64,000 bases of DNA from an uncultured Candidatus Saccharibacteria bacterium (GCA_964417855.1 CAYQJB010000001.1:38709-102708); one strand, 5' to 3'. Shown: positions 11,391 to 49,647, numbered from the stretch's first letter. The notes: a model not told the origin generated them from the letters alone. Translations and numbers: made by a program.

Positions 11391-13148
11391 CTATAGACTA
11401 ATAATTGTCTTCAAAAACTCTGTAAACAAAGGATGCGGATCAAGTGGTCTTGCAAGAAACTCAGGATGAAACTGTGTACCCAAGAAAAATGGGTGTTCAC
11501 TTTTTGGAAGTTCTGCAATTTCCATCAGCTTACCATTTGGAGACTTTCCAGAAAATACTAACCCAGCAGTCCTTATCTCCTCAACATATTCAGGATTAAC
11601 CTCATATCTATGTCTATGTCTTTCAATAACCTCATCTTCGCCATATGCTTTGTGTGCAATTGTCCCCTTCTCTATGTGAGCTTCGTATGCACCAAGTCTC
11701 ATCGATGCGCCATAATGACCATTGTCTAATTTAATCTTCTGATCAGGCATTATATCAATAACCACATGTTCTGCTTTAGGATTAATCTCAGCAGTATTTG
11801 CGTCTTTCCAACCTAAAACATTTCTAGCGTATTCAATTACCAGAAGCTGCATTCCATAACAAAGACCAAAGTATGGAATCTTGTTTAATCGAGCAAATTC
11901 TATGGTACTAATTAAGCCTTCAATTCCAGAATTTCCAAACCCGCCTGGAACGATTATTCCATCGTAATCTTTAAGACTTTTAATTGTCTTTGGGTCCTTC
12001 TCAAAATCCTTAGAATTTAACCACGATAATTTAACCTTAATCCCCAACTTATATGCAGAAAACTTAATTGCTTCAATAACAGAAACGTAGGCATCAGAAA
12101 AGACAAAATCTCCTGAGTCAAAATACTTTCCAACTACCGCAATTTTTAATGTTTTCTTTCCACTTTTTCCATCATCATTTTTTACAGCATCGCTCGCTGC
12201 TTTTACTTTTGAAACAAAACCCTTCCATGCTTTCATGTCTGTATTTCTATGTTCCAAGGAAAGCTCTCTAATTATCATCTCTCCAAGTTGATCCTTTTCA
12301 AAGTTGATAGGAACATCGTAAATGCTATCTATGTCAGGCGCTGATATTATATTATCAACGGGCACACTACATGAGAAAGCAATTTTCTCTTTTCTCTTTT
12401 TATCTACTGGAACTTCACTTCTTGCAACGATAAAATCTGCATGAACTCCATATGAGTTTAATTGTCTAATAGCATTTTGAGTTGGCTTACTTTTCATTTC
12501 TCCAATCTTGTTTGGAATTGGCATATAGGAAACCAAAATAAATACAACATCTTTTGGATGTCTAAGTTTCATTACACGAGCCGCTTCAATAAACATAATG
12601 TTTTGATAGTCGCCAACAGTTCCACCAATTTCAACAACTGTTATGTCAGAATCATTCATCTTTCCAGAAGCTTCATATCTATTTACAATTTCGTCTCTAA
12701 TATTATCTGCATCAATACACTTTCCACCAAAGCCAAGTGCACGCTCTTTATCTATAACATATTTATATACCATTCCAGATGTCATATAATCTTCCTTCTT
12801 TAATGATCGATTAAGAAATCTCTCATAGTTTCCCATATCTTGATCAGTTTCAAGTCCTGAGTCCATAACAAAAACCTCACCATGCTCGGTGGGGTTCATA
12901 GTACCCGCATCTACGTTTAGATACGGATCAACTTTCATTATATTTATTTTGTATCCTTTAGCCTCAAGTATAGTACCAATTGACGATGTAGTGATTCCCT
13001 TTCCTACTCCTGACATAACCCCTCCAATTACGAATATGTATTTATGCTTATCTACTATTTTTTTGTCTTTAGCCACTTTATCTGTTTTACTTGTTTTTAT
13101 CTGTTTTTTTGCGATTTTGTTTGTTTTGTTGATTTTGGAATTGGGCAT
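11391..13148 (-). CDS. pyrG: CTP synthase with Lys-rich approx 35-aa N-terminal extension
   Basis: YIFVIGGVMSGVGKGI P-loop region and glutamine amidotransferase domain with GLCYGMQ catalytic Cys. Confidence 0.9.
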   Translation of the reverse strand: MPNSKINKTNKIAKKQIKTSKTDKVAKDKKIVDKHKYIFVIGGVMSGVGKGITTSSIGTILEAKGYKINIMKVDPYLNVDAGTMNPTEHGEVFVMDSGLETDQDMGNYERFLNRSLKKEDYMTSGMVYKYVIDKERALGFGGKCIDADNIRDEIVNRYEASGKMNDSDITVVEIGGTVGDYQNIMFIEAARVMKLRHPKDVVFILVSYMPIPNKIGEMKSKPTQNAIRQLNSYGVHADFIVARSEVPVDKKRKEKIAFSCSVPVDNIISAPDIDSIYDVPINFEKDQLGEMIIRELSLEHRNTDMKAWKGFVSKVKAASDAVKNDDGKSGKKTLKIAVVGKYFDSGDFVFSDAYVSVIEAIKFSAYKLGIKVKLSWLNSKDFEKDPKTIKSLKDYDGIIVPGGFGNSGIEGLISTIEFARLNKIPYFGLCYGMQLLVIEYARNVLGWKDANTAEINPKAEHVVIDIMPDQKIKLDNGHYGASMRLGAYEAHIEKGTIAHKAYGEDEVIERHRHRYEVNPEYVEEIRTAGLVFSGKSPNGKLMEIAELPKSEHPFFLGTQFHPEFLARPLDPHPLFTEFLKTIISL

Positions 13149-13224
13149 GGTTTCTCTTTATTTTAATATTTTTTGAGAATAATGCAAAAGGCGTAAATAT
13201 GCTGTAAAATATAGACTGAATAAC

Positions 13225-15105
13225 ATGAAAAAATACATCAACTCAAATAGCATACTTGTCGTGACTATCTTGATTGCCCTCATAAGCTATGCCTTTCTAA
13301 GATCCACAGAATATAGGCAATATATTGATACGATTATTGTATCCATAACAATTATAGGTTCCCTTCCTATAGCCTATAATCTAATAATTTCCATATACAA
13401 AAAACAGTTTGGAGTGGATCTTATCGCTCTTTTTGCAATTATAGCAACGCTTTTGACCAACGAGCATCTCGCTGGTGCAATTATTCTTTTAATGCTTTCT
13501 ACTGGAGTTTTTCTTGAAAAATATGCAGAAGGCCAAGCAAAAAATGCACTGGAAAATCTATTAAGATACGCCCCCACAAAGGCACATAGAGTTATAAAAG
13601 GTACAACAAATTTTGAGGATATAACTGTTCAAGAAATTAAAATTGGTGACACACTACTTATTAAACGAGGAGAAATTATGCCCGTCGATGGCGTTGTTGT
13701 TTCAGGAGTATCTTCAATTGATGAATCTATTGTTACCGGAGAACCAATGCCAAGGAGTGTTAAACCGAGTTCAAAGGTTTGGAGTGGTACTACAAATACA
13801 GTTGATGTAATTTATATTAAGTCTACAACAAATTATGAACAAAGTACTTTCTCAGCAATCATCAGATTAGTAGAAAGAGCTCAAGATGAAAAAGCTCCCA
13901 CAGTTAGGTTGGCAAACAAATTCAGTGTAGTCTTCACTGTCACGACTTTCATTATGGCTGGTATCGCATGGTACATTGATCCAAAACTAGTTGCAGCTGT
14001 TTTAGTTGTTGCAACACCCTGCCCTCTTATCCTAGCGGCGCCGATTGCTTTCATTGCTGGAATGAGTAGATCAGCAAAGAATGGAATTATAGTTAAGCAT
14101 GGTGGAGTGTTTGAATTAATTACAAAAGCGCATTCTTTCTTTTTCGATAAAACAGGCACGCTCACTTTTGGTGTACCTCAGGTGAATAAAATTATTATTT
14201 TGGATAATAGTTCTGATAAAGGTATATCAGCAAAAAAGTGGACCAAGGAGGAGGTCTTAGCACTCTCTGCTTCTGTTGAACAATTCTCTACACATATACT
14301 TTCACAAAGTATTGTAGCCCTTGCTAACACTCAAAAACTTGATTTATTTGTACCTGAAAAGTTTGAAGAAACATTAGGTCAGGGTATAAGTGGGATAGTT
14401 AAGACAAATAGTCATGAGGCTACAGTTGTTGACGGTAGAGCGTCCCTGTTAGAATCAAAAGGAATTACAATTAGCGGTGAGGCAAAAAGACTTGTCGCAG
14501 AAGCAAAGGCCACAGGGGAGATGGCAATATACATTGCGGTTAATAACAGAAATGTTGCAGTGATGACTTTCTCAGACAAAATAAGAAGTGACATTGCTGA
14601 TATTTTAGAAAAGATAAAAGAAACAGGAGCTGAAATTGTTTTGGTAACTGGCGACACTGAGGATAGGGCTCAAAAAATTGGTGAAGAATTAGGTTTTACG
14701 ATAATTGAAGCGAATTGTCTACCAGAACATAAGATGGATTTAATACAAAAATATGAAGCCGCTGGAAAGCCTGTAGTGATGATTGGTGATGGAGTTAATG
14801 ACGCACCAGCAATCGGACGAGCAAGCGTTGGTATTGCACTTGGATATCATGGAGCAACTGCATCGACGGATACAGCTGATGCAATAATTACCTCAGATGA
14901 TACAGCAAAGGTTTTAAAATTAATTCAGATTAGCCATAAGACAATGACCATTGCCATGCAGTCTATTTTTATTGGAATGGCATTAAGTTTAACAGCAATG
15001 GTTTTTGCTATATTTGGTTTTATAACTCCAATTTCAGGTGCGCTACTTCAGGAAGCGATTGATGTTTTGGTTATATTAAATGCTTTGCGTGCGCTGAGGA
15101 ATTAA
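13225..15105 (+). CDS. P-type cation-transporting ATPase (P1B-like, no N-terminal metal-binding domain)
   Basis: TGEP, DKTGTLT, GDGVNDAPA, and a TPCPL (CPx-like) motif in a TM helix. Confidence 0.8.
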   Translation: MKKYINSNSILVVTILIALISYAFLRSTEYRQYIDTIIVSITIIGSLPIAYNLIISIYKKQFGVDLIALFAIIATLLTNEHLAGAIILLMLSTGVFLEKYAEGQAKNALENLLRYAPTKAHRVIKGTTNFEDITVQEIKIGDTLLIKRGEIMPVDGVVVSGVSSIDESIVTGEPMPRSVKPSSKVWSGTTNTVDVIYIKSTTNYEQSTFSAIIRLVERAQDEKAPTVRLANKFSVVFTVTTFIMAGIAWYIDPKLVAAVLVVATPCPLILAAPIAFIAGMSRSAKNGIIVKHGGVFELITKAHSFFFDKTGTLTFGVPQVNKIIILDNSSDKGISAKKWTKEEVLALSASVEQFSTHILSQSIVALANTQKLDLFVPEKFEETLGQGISGIVKTNSHEATVVDGRASLLESKGITISGEAKRLVAEAKATGEMAIYIAVNNRNVAVMTFSDKIRSDIADILEKIKETGAEIVLVTGDTEDRAQKIGEELGFTIIEANCLPEHKMDLIQKYEAAGKPVVMIGDGVNDAPAIGRASVGIALGYHGATASTDTADAIITSDDTAKVLKLIQISHKTMTIAMQSIFIGMALSLTAMVFAIFGFITPISGALLQEAIDVLVILNALRALRN

Positions 15106-48318: not shown

Positions 48319-48488
48319 ATTCTTTGTGATTCTAGGGTTCTGTATTTTAGTTCAGGGTTCTGATGCAAGGAATCGATAACATCTTCACATCTGTCTTAAT
48401 GCTATTCTTCTCGTGATTTTTGTCAATGCAGAAAAATAATCACAAAAAAAAGAGCCCTATTGCTAGGACTCTTTTTATTGTTTCTTTG

Positions 48489-48560
48489 CGCGGCTGATGG
48501 GTGCTGACCCCACGGCCTCTCCCGTGACAGGGGAGTGCTCTACCGTTGAGCTACAGCCGC
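48489..48560 (-). tRNA. tRNA-Asp (anticodon GUC), CCA not encoded, unusual T-loop GTCAGCA
   Basis: Cloverleaf: GCGGCTG/CAGCCGC acceptor, GCTC-AACGGTA-GAGC D-arm, CTCCC-CTGTCAC-GGGAG anticodon arm. Confidence 0.6.
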
Positions 48561-49159
48561 ATTTTCATGAATCCTTCGAAAATAAGCTTTTTTCTGTCCA
48601 GATAAAGCTTACTCGTCGTATTATACATGATTTTATAAATTTTCAAAGAGTCTCGGGTACTATACTGTAATCTACTATAATTTCCACTTCTAAGGTTAAA
48701 TAAACTTCCACCGTCCAAACCTAAAGAATTAAGCATATTAAATAGATTATTTAAGAACATTTTACTAGCAGAAGTAAAGGCTACAAACATCACGGATGTT
48801 GGTTTTTTTCTTGTTTTATTAGTATGCCCTACCCAGATATTTCCATCCCCATCAAAATACCCTCTAATAAAATCTCCTTCATATTTTTTTGGAATGGTAG
48901 GAATATCCATTCTTAATGACTTATTTGGGGTAAGTCCAAGGAGTACAAGGTCATTAAACATTTCTTTGCTTCCAATTTGGACCCTATATACAGACCCCGT
49001 TTCTGATTTTATTTCAGATATTTTATGTGGTAATTTCATTACTTCAGCAATAGAAATAAGAAGTTCCCTGTCAGCCGTATAGAAAGAGATAAAATGAGTA
49101 TTTCTTTTAGTTTTAATTATGTTACCATCTGCAAATAAAAAACCTAAAATATAAGCCAT
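48551..49159 (-). CDS. double-motif LAGLIDADG homing endonuclease; stop lies inside tRNA-Asp 5' end
   Basis: LGFLFADGNI and IRGYFDGDGNIW dodecapeptide motifs. Confidence 0.75.
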   Translation of the reverse strand: MAYILGFLFADGNIIKTKRNTHFISFYTADRELLISIAEVMKLPHKISEIKSETGSVYRVQIGSKEMFNDLVLLGLTPNKSLRMDIPTIPKKYEGDFIRGYFDGDGNIWVGHTNKTRKKPTSVMFVAFTSASKMFLNNLFNMLNSLGLDGGSLFNLRSGNYSRLQYSTRDSLKIYKIMYNTTSKLYLDRKKLIFEGFMKMRL

Positions 49160-49267: not shown

Positions 49268-49341
49268 TGTCGACGGGAGGGATCGAACCTCCGACCTTGG
49301 GCTTATGAGTCCCACGCTCTAACCAACTGAGCTACGTCGAC
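49268..49341 (-). tRNA. tRNA-Met (or tRNA-Ile lysidine), anticodon CAU, elongator-type
   Basis: Cloverleaf: perfect acceptor GTCGACG/CGTCGAC, canonical D-arm and T-arm (GGAGG-TTCGATC-CCTCC), loop CTCATAA. Confidence 0.8.
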
Positions 49342-49423
49342 GTACAGACACTATAATACAAAAACACCTAATTTTCAAGCTTTATAGAAGGCTCTATTTT
49401 ATGCATTTTTTACGATTAATATC

Positions 49424-49460
49424 TACCCAGCAAAAAAGCCCCTATTAGGAGCTTTTTTTT
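49424..49460. terminator. bidirectional hairpin AAAAAAGCCCCTATTAGGAGCTTTTTTTTTT between the two CAU tRNAs
   Basis: Read directly. Confidence 0.6.
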
Positions 49461-49468
49461 TTAAATTG

Positions 49469-49539
49469 TTGCGGAGTCCGGAATTGCACCGGATCTACAA
49501 GGTTATGAGCCTCGCGTGCGACTGTAACACTCCCCCGCA
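49469..49539 (-). tRNA. atypical tRNA-like gene with CAU anticodon: 7-bp acceptor, 4-bp D-stem with 7-nt D-loop lacking GG, T-loop TGCAATT
   Basis: Hand-folded TGCGGGG..(GTGT-TTACAGTC-GCAC)..CGAGG-CTCATAA-CCTTG..TCCGG-TGCAATT-CCGGA..CTCCGCA-A. Confidence 0.4.
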
Positions 49540-49647
49540 ATTTGTATCTATATCAAATATGAATACCTTCGTACTATATAACATATTGTAATAAAAGACA
49601 ATCCTTTTCAGGTTTTAGTCTAAAATACCAAATAGCAATAAGTCAGC

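Follow-up and report, generated by a model that had tools for sequence, protein, structure and literature searches.

The locus described here raises a simple question: which task is carried out by a second CAU transfer RNA (tRNA) gene whose elbow does not look like that of other tRNAs? The gene is at positions 49469-49539 of a stretch of 64,000 nucleotides (nt), hereafter the window, from an uncultured bacterium labelled Candidatus Saccharibacteria (GCA_964417855.1, CAYQJB010000001.1:38709-102708). Judging from its sequence and from its relatives, we consider it probable, at about 0.85, that this gene would be the functional initiator tRNA (tRNA(fMet)) of the organism. Its elbow carries A18 and G55 in place of G18 and U55, and the same pair of nucleotides was found in initiator-type tRNAs of many lineages of the candidate phyla radiation (CPR).

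The tRNA gene and its fold

The gene and its loops are as follows.

49469-49539, minus strand: 71-nt tRNA(CAU) gene, probably the initiator tRNA(fMet), assigned from ARAGORN, Rfam RF00005, the cloverleaf of minimum free energy (MFE), initiator-type sequence and compensatory changes
49520-49526, minus strand: D-loop UACAGUC, 7 nt, with A18 at 49523 and G19 at 49522 and without G18, as placed by the Infernal alignment
49503-49509, minus strand: anticodon loop CUCAUAA, with CAU at 49505-49507, on the stem CGAGG/CCUUG (A29-U41, G30-C40, G31-C39)
49482-49488, minus strand: T-loop UGCAAUU, that is U54, G55 (49487), C56 (49486), A57, A58, U59 and U60, read directly from the sequence

Written by stems and loops, the RNA is UGCGGGG GA GUGU UACAGUC GCAC G CGAGG CUCAUAA CCUUG UAGA UCCGG UGCAAUU CCGGA CUCCGCA A. 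There are four stems: an acceptor stem of 7 bp (including G6-U67), a D-stem of 4 bp, and anticodon and T-stems of 5 bp each; the variable loop has 4 nt. CCA is not encoded, and CAA follows A73 at 49466-49468. ARAGORN, run on the window, called a tRNA-Met(cat) at 49468-49539. The Rfam model RF00005, run on the gene locally with permissive filters, gave 40.7 bits (gathering score 29, E = 2.8e-07), with an alignment that spans model positions 1-71 end to end and zero non-canonical pairs flagged. An Rfam run over the whole window at the gathering threshold omitted this tRNA, because of the speed filters and not because of rejection by the model. An earlier note on this DNA, made from the sequence alone, had allowed for rejection by covariance models, and the score of 40.7 bits is an acceptance.

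The cloverleaf is also the MFE fold of the RNA (-26.4 kcal/mol, z = -2.24), and only 2 of 200 shuffled sequences were equally stable. On this fold, the Rfam score and the conservation in relatives (below), 49469-49539 is a genuine tRNA gene, far above chance.

An elbow with A18 and G55

Infernal placed the A-G of the D-loop under the G18-G19 of the model, so that G19 and C56 both remain and the change is confined to the 18/55 contact, where it affects the two sides alike. Among the elbow nucleotides G19, U54, C56 and A58 are present, A18 stands for G18 and G55 stands for U55. As read from this alignment, the elbow is a coordinated swap (G18/U55 to A18/G55), a variant elbow rather than an absent one.

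The earlier note had described most of this correctly. The 71-nt cloverleaf of a second CAU tRNA, the 7-bp acceptor stem, the arm CGAGG-CTCATAA-CCTTG, the 5-bp T-stem and the T-loop TGCAATT with G55 all agree with our reading. Its D-loop had the right length (7 nt) and rightly lacked GG, but the string given for it, TTACAGT, was shifted by one base from the actual UACAGUC. It had also taken the D/T-loop interaction to have lost both of its partners; the change at 18 and 55 stands, but the loss does not, since G19-C56 is kept and the two altered positions form a coordinated swap.

We surveyed positions 18 and 55 in 779 unique tRNAs, called by ARAGORN in the window and in metagenome and genome loci. 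U55 with GG was seen in 526 of them, G55 with AG in 203, G55 with GG in 4 and U55 with AG in 3, and A18 accompanied G55 in 203 of the 207 classifiable G55 tRNAs. GG was counted only at loop positions able to be 18/19; if GG anywhere in the loop is counted, the G55-GG cases become 23, not 4. The non-CAU tRNAs of the set, which were not chosen by the search pattern described below, comprised 439 with U55 and GG, 46 with G55 and AG, 3 with U55 and AG and none with G55 and GG, and their G55 cases covered 16 amino-acid types at 17 loci. All of these counts come from mutually related sequences and not from independent events, which reduces their weight in favour of the reading given here.

Initiator, elongator or isoleucine tRNA

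Three Escherichia coli MG1655 genes were used as references in global alignments: metZ (initiator), metT (elongator) and ileX (Ile2). The window tRNA was 63.4% identical with metZ and 46.5% identical with metT and with ileX. The commonest CPR form, from the family described below, was 84.7%, 55.6% and 56.9% identical with the three genes, respectively. With the E. coli initiator genes metZ/metW/metV the window tRNA shares the CAU anticodon, the discriminator A73, the GGCUCAUAACC anticodon arm and the acceptor UGCGGGG/CUCCGCA, which is of the metZ type (xGCGGGG/CCCCGCA), and the common CPR form additionally shares the GGAGCAG...GUAGCUCG D-arm with metZ. Compared with the E. coli initiator, these tRNAs have a D-loop of 7 instead of 9 nt, A18 for G18, G55 for U55, a 4-nt variable loop and A29-U41. 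The window copy in particular also has U1-A72 (C1xA72 in E. coli), U11:A24 (A11:U24 in E. coli) and G8/U14/C21.

Several points weigh against an initiator. A BLAST search of the window tRNA against all complete E. coli genomes gave zero matches, so the likeness to metZ rests on the global alignment. U1-A72 is a weak Watson-Crick pair, where initiators are normally mismatched; the E. coli formyltransferase tolerates weak 1:72 pairs. Initiators have A11:U24, and the window tRNA has U11:A24 in place of a purine 11 and pyrimidine 24. Its anticodon stem keeps two of the three initiator G-C pairs at 29-31:39-41, with A29-U41 instead of the first. Mycoplasma-type initiators have an AU/GC/GC anticodon stem together with canonical D- and T-loops, and so they share with the window tRNA, and with 103 of the 132 members of its family, the presence of the second and third G-C pairs only. 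G8, U14 and C21 replace the U8, A14 and A21 of the family, which suggests that the 8-14-21 core triple may be remodelled as well, and we offer no explanation for it. Finally, the window covers only 64 kb of the genome, and a canonical initiator could lie outside it. That this tRNA would be the sole initiator of the genome is a prediction, as are its expression and formylation.

The next gene downstream is a canonical tRNA with the same anticodon.

49268-49341, minus strand: canonical tRNA(CAU) of the elongator type, with G1-C72, GG in its D-loop and UUCGAUC as its T-loop (Rfam, 69.8 bits)

This neighbour is 127 nt downstream of the atypical tRNA, with a promoter-like site at 49350-49378. It has C11:G24, its anticodon stem is not of the initiator type, its top BLAST matches in E. 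coli are annotated as tRNA-Met, and it is 70% identical with metT and ileX alike. From its sequence it may be either the elongator tRNA-Met or Ile2.

If the neighbour were Ile2 or the initiator, the atypical gene could be the elongator tRNA-Met. CAU, A73 and a U1-A72 pair that EF-Tu could in principle tolerate would agree with this, but it is the neighbour that has G1-C72, C11:G24, a non-initiator anticodon stem and elongator tRNA-Met as best E. coli matches, and in the family of the atypical tRNA position 1:72 is mostly unpaired. In bacterial initiators an unpaired 1:72 disfavours EF-Tu. We regard an elongator function of the atypical gene as scarcely credible.

The atypical gene could instead be tRNA-Ile2, in which C34 would be changed to lysidine by TilS for reading AUA, while the neighbour or another gene supplied Met or fMet. 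Every bacterium that reads AUA by lysidine needs such a tRNA with a CAU anticodon, and the equal identity of the neighbour to metT and ileX leaves room for it. However, the acceptor xGCGGGG/CCCCGCA-A is that of the initiator, 80% of the family lacks a pair at 1:72, and the identity with ileX is lower than that with metZ both for the window tRNA (46.5% vs 63%) and for the common CPR form (57% vs 85%). An Ile2 tRNA is an elongator, and pairing of the G1-C72 type is expected for EF-Tu. The nucleotides that TilS recognises differ from species to species. The introns of the orthologues, described in the following section, are also placed as in tRNA-fMet. So the Ile-lysidine function, which the earlier note had offered beside the initiator, is highly improbable, while the initiator, its other proposal, agrees with the metZ-type acceptor and anticodon arm, the 63.4% identity, the hallmarks of the family and the introns at 33/34.

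Relatives chosen by GatA and their introns

Loci were also chosen by homology to the GatA protein, because a pattern search for the tRNA is biased to G55. This unbiased set consisted of nine loci (62-80% GatA identity), with no condition placed on the tRNA. Downstream of gatA, each of the nine has an initiator-type tRNA of 71 nt that carries A18-G19 and G55, and conservation in relatives, which the earlier note had proposed to check, was thereby found. The window and all nine loci have the same order of genes: pilus genes, ligA, gatC, gatA, an open reading frame (ORF) of about 260 amino acids, and the tRNA or tRNAs. The closest relative in the set is L373 (L numbers denote the loci compared), whose tRNA differs from that of the window by one compensatory pair in the T-stem.

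In four of the nine loci (L373, L374, L376 and L378) an intron of 215-240 nt interrupts the tRNA exactly at the junction of U33 and C34, and the exons are intact. Rfam recognised Intron_gpI in three of these four split genes, with 58.8, 70.4 and 52.8 bits.

L373, 12454-12683: group I intron at 33/34
L374, about 12764-13003: group I intron at 33/34
L376, about 12369-12598: group I intron at 33/34
L378, about 13185-13399: group I intron at 33/34

Position 33/34 is a common insertion site of group I introns in tRNA-fMet (PMC13011429), and so the introns of the orthologues support the identity as tRNA-fMet. The orthologues thus share this site with known intron-bearing tRNA-fMet genes, and the copy in the window has no intron. 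For Patescibacteria, the same paper reports tRNA introns enriched at 35/36 in tRNA-Asn and tRNA-Asp (PMC13011429).

With default settings ARAGORN found only two of the nine tRNAs of the GatA loci; it missed three of the five intronless genes (L379-L381) and all four with introns. Together with the default miss by Rfam, it means that initiator tRNAs may be under-called in CPR genomes.

A family of G55 relatives

A wider set of relatives was collected with a pattern that joins the initiator-type anticodon arm to a T-loop with G55, GGCTCATAACC N10-12 GTGCRANNC. The pattern fixes G55, C56, A58 and G30/G31, and invariance at these positions is by construction. At least 120 each of metagenome stretches, genomes of GTDB species and viral contigs contained a match. 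Among the matches listed, the genome loci parsed comprised 76 with CPR names, 7 without label and 33 from other phyla. The CPR names included Saccharibacteria, Parcubacteria, Paceibacterota, Taylor-, Niyogi-, Zambryski-, Giovannoni-, Adler-, Kaiser- and Berkelbacteria and others; no name of the Microgenomates type was present among the 76 CPR-labelled matches listed.

The genome matches listed gave 71 unique CPR sequences, which form one family. Its acceptor positions 2-7 read GCGGGG in 56 sequences, and the 1:72 position was A:A in 32, C:A in 17 and U:A in 10. A11:U24 was present in 63, A29-U41 in 61 and A73 in 71 of 71. The D-loop had 7 nt in 66 sequences, read AGUAGUA in 39 and was without GG in 69, and the T-loop was UGCAAUU in 37. 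After A73, these CPR genes continue with CAA in 38 of 71, CAC in 11 and CCA in 9; C74 is usually encoded and the full CCA is not.

Among the matches listed, the wider family amounted to 132 unique sequences. Every stem pair other than 1:72 was canonical in at least 95% of them (126 of 132 for the fourth D-stem pair, at least 130 of 132 for all others), with up to six types of pair at one position; the third pair of the T-stem, for example, was CG in 49, GC in 35, UA in 25 and AU in 21. On the contrary, 1:72 was unpaired in 106 of 132 (A:A in 50, C:A in 36, U:A in 19). A11:U24 was found in 118 of 132 and A29-U41 in 103 of 132, and G30-C40 and G31-C39 were present. Canonical stems with varied types of pair, together with the unpaired 1:72, point to a bacterial initiator under selection. 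A18-G19 was invariant in all 121 family members with a 7-nt D-loop.

The window copy is one of a subtype in which the D-arm reads GUGU-NACAGNN-GCAC, position 8 is a purine and U11:A24 is present; this subtype was also seen in L137, L171, L206, L238, L373, L374 and L378-L381. The combination of G8, U14 and C21 was found in the window copy, L171 and L373 only. The L171 tRNA is identical with that of the window at 69 of 71 positions and differs by one compensatory T-stem pair, with flanks of about 71% nucleotide identity.

These comparisons bear on whether the gene is a pseudogene or a tRNA-like RNA outside translation, for example as a decoy, as a regulator or, in the manner of the staphylococcal tRNA-Gly, as a donor in the synthesis of the cell wall. 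The lack of G18 and U55 would fit with it, as the non-proteinogenic tRNA-Gly of Staphylococcus lacks G18G19 and U55C56, and so would the Rfam score of 40.7 bits, compared with 59-70 bits for the neighbouring tRNAs. But the four stems are kept by compensatory changes across 132 sequences, the tRNA is conserved at 69 of 71 positions while its flanks have drifted to about 71%, and G19-C56, U54-A58, U33 and the CAU anticodon are all retained, as are intact exons in the orthologues with introns. The staphylococcal tRNAs lose both D/T contacts, and the window tRNA keeps G19-C56. We give the decoy, which the earlier note had also mentioned, a very slight chance, in view of the compensated stems and the retained G19 and C56; the window gene itself is an ordinary essential housekeeping tRNA.

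Distribution within and outside CPR

In the CPR loci examined, which cover 8-20 kb each, the other CAU tRNAs were all of the elongator type with G1-C72 and had GG with U55 or C55. Among the non-CAU tRNAs of these loci, 78 of 80 likewise had GG with U55 or C55, and no canonical initiator was present in the same loci. Within the CPR loci examined, the A18/G55 elbow is specific to the initiator.

C55 is another departure from U55. We noticed 15 tRNAs with C55 (T-loop like UCCGAUU) and a GG D-loop, in L149, L156, L164, L216, L220, L240 and other CPR loci, and several of them are the elongator-type CAU tRNAs of CPR genomes.

Outside CPR, initiator-like tRNAs with G55/A18 were found in tRNA arrays of Hyphomicrobiaceae, Nostoc, Steroidobacteraceae and Polyangiaceae. 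In L132 (Hyphomicrobiaceae) and in L153 and L213 (Nostoc), the CAU tRNA that matches the pattern has G55/A18 and the other tRNAs of the array read as canonical (19 in L132). The non-CPR arrays L186 and L230 contain further G55 tRNAs beside the matching CAU tRNA with G55/A18. In arrays of Verrucomicrobia the A18-G19/G55 elbow is found on many isoacceptors (Leu, Gln, Arg, Thr, Gly, Ile and others): positions 3235-5400 of L127, a Verrucomicrobiaceae metagenome-assembled genome (MAG), contain 12 such non-CAU tRNAs, and similar arrays are in L162, L140 (Prosthecobacter) and L087. Two further MAGs, both Bacteroidales, L133 (Muribaculaceae) and L166 (Prevotella), each have an initiator-type tRNA whose D-loop is AGUAGUA and whose T-loop reads UGCGAUU or UGCGAAU. 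It has a mismatch at C1:C72, its CCA or CUA tail is encoded, and it was the sole tRNA parsed in each locus.

The same A18/G55 elbow was found on initiator-like tRNA(CAU) genes of at least 120 IMG/VR viral contigs (L250-L369). Among the matches listed, CCA was encoded in 73 of 98 viral copies, and many of these genes were in arrays of up to 27 tRNAs. Among cultured phages, the best INPHARED matches read (Gordonia phage GodonK, Caulobacter phage CcrSC and Clavibacter phage CN1A) had initiators with the canonical GG and UUC. The viral examples of A18/G55 therefore come from IMG/VR contigs alone, because the INPHARED initiators read are canonical.

The window gene might then be an extra initiator-like tRNA acquired by way of a phage or of a mobile array of tRNAs, with the canonical chromosomal initiator elsewhere in the genome. 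The viral contigs with their arrays and the arrays of non-CPR genomes speak for such an origin. However, the gene has the same chromosomal context in the window and in all nine relatives selected by GatA, CCA is encoded in most viral copies (73 of 98) and in few CPR copies (9 of 71, and not in the window), and no canonical initiator was seen in the CPR loci of 8-20 kb. We judge an acquired extra copy to be very unlikely, and a chromosomal initiator remains our preferred assignment. This extra-copy origin and the Ile2, decoy and elongator assignments were rejected for the reasons given with each. The distribution also shows that the "lineage-specific" elbow of the earlier note is too narrow a term, as the elbow extends over many lineages of CPR and is also carried by viral contigs and by the tRNA arrays of other phyla.

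Flanking signals, neighbouring genes and host

Two signals flank the atypical tRNA gene.

49573-49601, minus strand: weak sigma-70-like match TTGTCT-17-TATAGT, 9 of 12 positions, about 30 nt upstream of the tRNA, by consensus match alone
49432-49458, minus strand: terminator-like hairpin directly 3' of the tRNA, with a GCUCC/GGGGC core, additional A:U pairs and a U6 end

Folding of the 3' flank gave the hairpin -14.1 kcal/mol (z = -3.04), and at the matching position L171 has a GC hairpin with a U tract after it. A simple terminator scan of the window did not list the hairpin at 49432-49458. These predicted signals suggest that the gene is served by a promoter and a terminator of its own.

The neighbourhood contains type IV pilus genes, ligA, gatC, gatA, a free-standing LAGLIDADG ORF and an HD-domain protein. 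In the canonical neighbour at 49268-49341, a non-canonical A31-G39 closes the anticodon stem (GGGA-CUCAUAA-GCCC), and an identical arm was seen in many CPR loci. The LAGLIDADG ORF, like a homing endonuclease and 202 amino acids long, is at 48551-49159 on the minus strand, between the tRNA-Met-like gene and a tRNA-Asp gene, and there is an overlap between its stop codon and the 5' end of the tRNA-Asp. A LAGLIDADG ORF downstream of gatA with tRNA genes is also present in several relatives (the P0002 place, L373, L380 and L381).

The tRNA-Asp(GUC) itself (48488-48560, minus strand) has the T-loop GUCAGCA, with G54/G58 for the usual U54/A58, and a 7-nt D-loop AACGGUA. Its T-loop is shared by four other CPR loci (L214, L238, L116 and L380), and L235 and L377 have AUCAACA, with A54 and A58. 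The 54/58 pair of tRNA-Asp thus seems to covary in these sequences, with G/G or A/A replacing U/A.

The GatA protein of the window is identical on 13 contigs, one of them in the MAG GCA_037127815.1, and the atypical tRNA is identical at six places (L001-L006) that carry this GatA. The nearest named GatA homologues belong to MAGs of Parcubacteria, Paceibacterota, Taylorbacteria and "Patescibacteria group", which points to a CPR host of the Parcubacteria/Paceibacteria type.

Comparison with known systems and a possible mechanism

The nearest structural likeness to the elbow was found in riboswitches. The T-loop consensus of flavin mononucleotide (FMN) and cobalamin riboswitches is (UGHAA)UU, in nearly all cases an adenosine is inserted between loop positions 4 and 5, and two hydrogen bonds join this intercalating adenosine to the sugar edge of the G at position 2 (bioRxiv 10.1101/2022.12.26.521914). 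The UGCAAUU of the window fits this optimum with A18 as the inserting partner, and the family has U54 in 132 of 132, A57 in 113 of 132 and U60 in 131 of 132. By analogy, UGCAAUU with A18 may be a T-loop/receptor module of the riboswitch type; its three-dimensional geometry is taken from this analogy and not from a tRNA structure, which weakens the case. The invariance of A18 and its covariation with G55 are consistent with an insertion of this kind. There is also a difference from the riboswitches, as the module would stand in a tRNA elbow, where C56 (loop position 3) would keep its Watson-Crick pair with G19.

Two groups of tRNAs with altered elbows are comparable. In eukaryotes, A54 and A60 of the initiator may aid the discrimination between initiator and elongator. 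They are in the T-loop of the cytoplasmic initiator (PMC7912444), and the likeness is a non-standard T-loop on the initiator and not on elongators; the positions are 54/60 there and 18/55 here, and the domain of life is another. The non-proteinogenic tRNA-Gly of Staphylococcus departs from G18G19/U55C56 and binds EF-Tu weakly; it has U18U19 or C18U19 and a UCC anticodon, and it serves cell-wall synthesis (PMC4574755). It is likewise a bacterial tRNA with an altered elbow, and it shows that a tRNA outside the elongation cycle tolerates changes of the elbow, but the window tRNA differs from it in its initiator features as well as in the G19-C56 contact.

If the gene is the initiator, the following steps can be proposed. 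The transcript would be processed at its 5' and 3' ends, given its CCA, charged by methionyl-tRNA synthetase through the CAU anticodon and A73, and used to start translation in the ribosomal P site. In its elbow, A18-G55 would replace the inner contact of G18 with pseudouridine-55, with the D-loop shortened to 7 nt. A18 may insert between A57 and A58 and form hydrogen bonds with G55, as the intercalating adenosine of the riboswitches does. The flat face of G19-C56 would persist, and would be available to L5, RNase P and the L1 stalk. In the P site, ribosomal protein L5 directly contacts G19-C56, and base stacking underlies recognition of the elbow by RNase P and the L1 stalk (PMC4810234).

Novelty and significance

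Reviews of T-loops and of the tRNA elbow describe G18, G19 and pseudouridine-55 as conserved in all tRNAs and do not mention G55 (PMC7912444; PMC4810234). The open-access literature gave no account of a G55/A18 elbow, either in initiators or in the tRNAs of CPR; this covers open-access papers only and is not proof of novelty. A paper on tRNA genes of Patescibacteria does not discuss this elbow, and in the portion available of its supplement, on 95 complete Patescibacteria genomes, the G55 T-arm strings GGTGCAAT, GGTGCAAA, GTGCAATTCC, GTGCAAATCC and GTGCAAGTCC do not occur (PMC13011429). The A18/G55 elbow of initiators is apparently a widespread and previously undescribed variant of a near-universal feature of tRNA.

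Whether this elbow has a function of its own is a further question. That A18-G55 would be a functional mark of the initiator, and not a neutral swap, is a tentative idea which we hold to be rather unlikely. If it is true, a large part of CPR would be fixed for this mark, and the mark would recur in the initiator-like tRNAs borne by phages and arrays. It would be a bacterial counterpart of the eukaryotic A54/A60 T-loop, and a signature for finding CPR initiators missed by annotation.

The A18-G55 elbow removes the otherwise universal site of pseudouridine-55. If the elbow is a mark, it may fold unmodified, or may be treated differently by initiation factors, L5, EF-Tu or RNase P. The variant is a natural test of the inner elbow contact, of pseudouridine-55, and of the constraints on initiators compared with those on elongators. 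In these lineages, the tRNA that is essential for starting translation would do so without G18 and U55.

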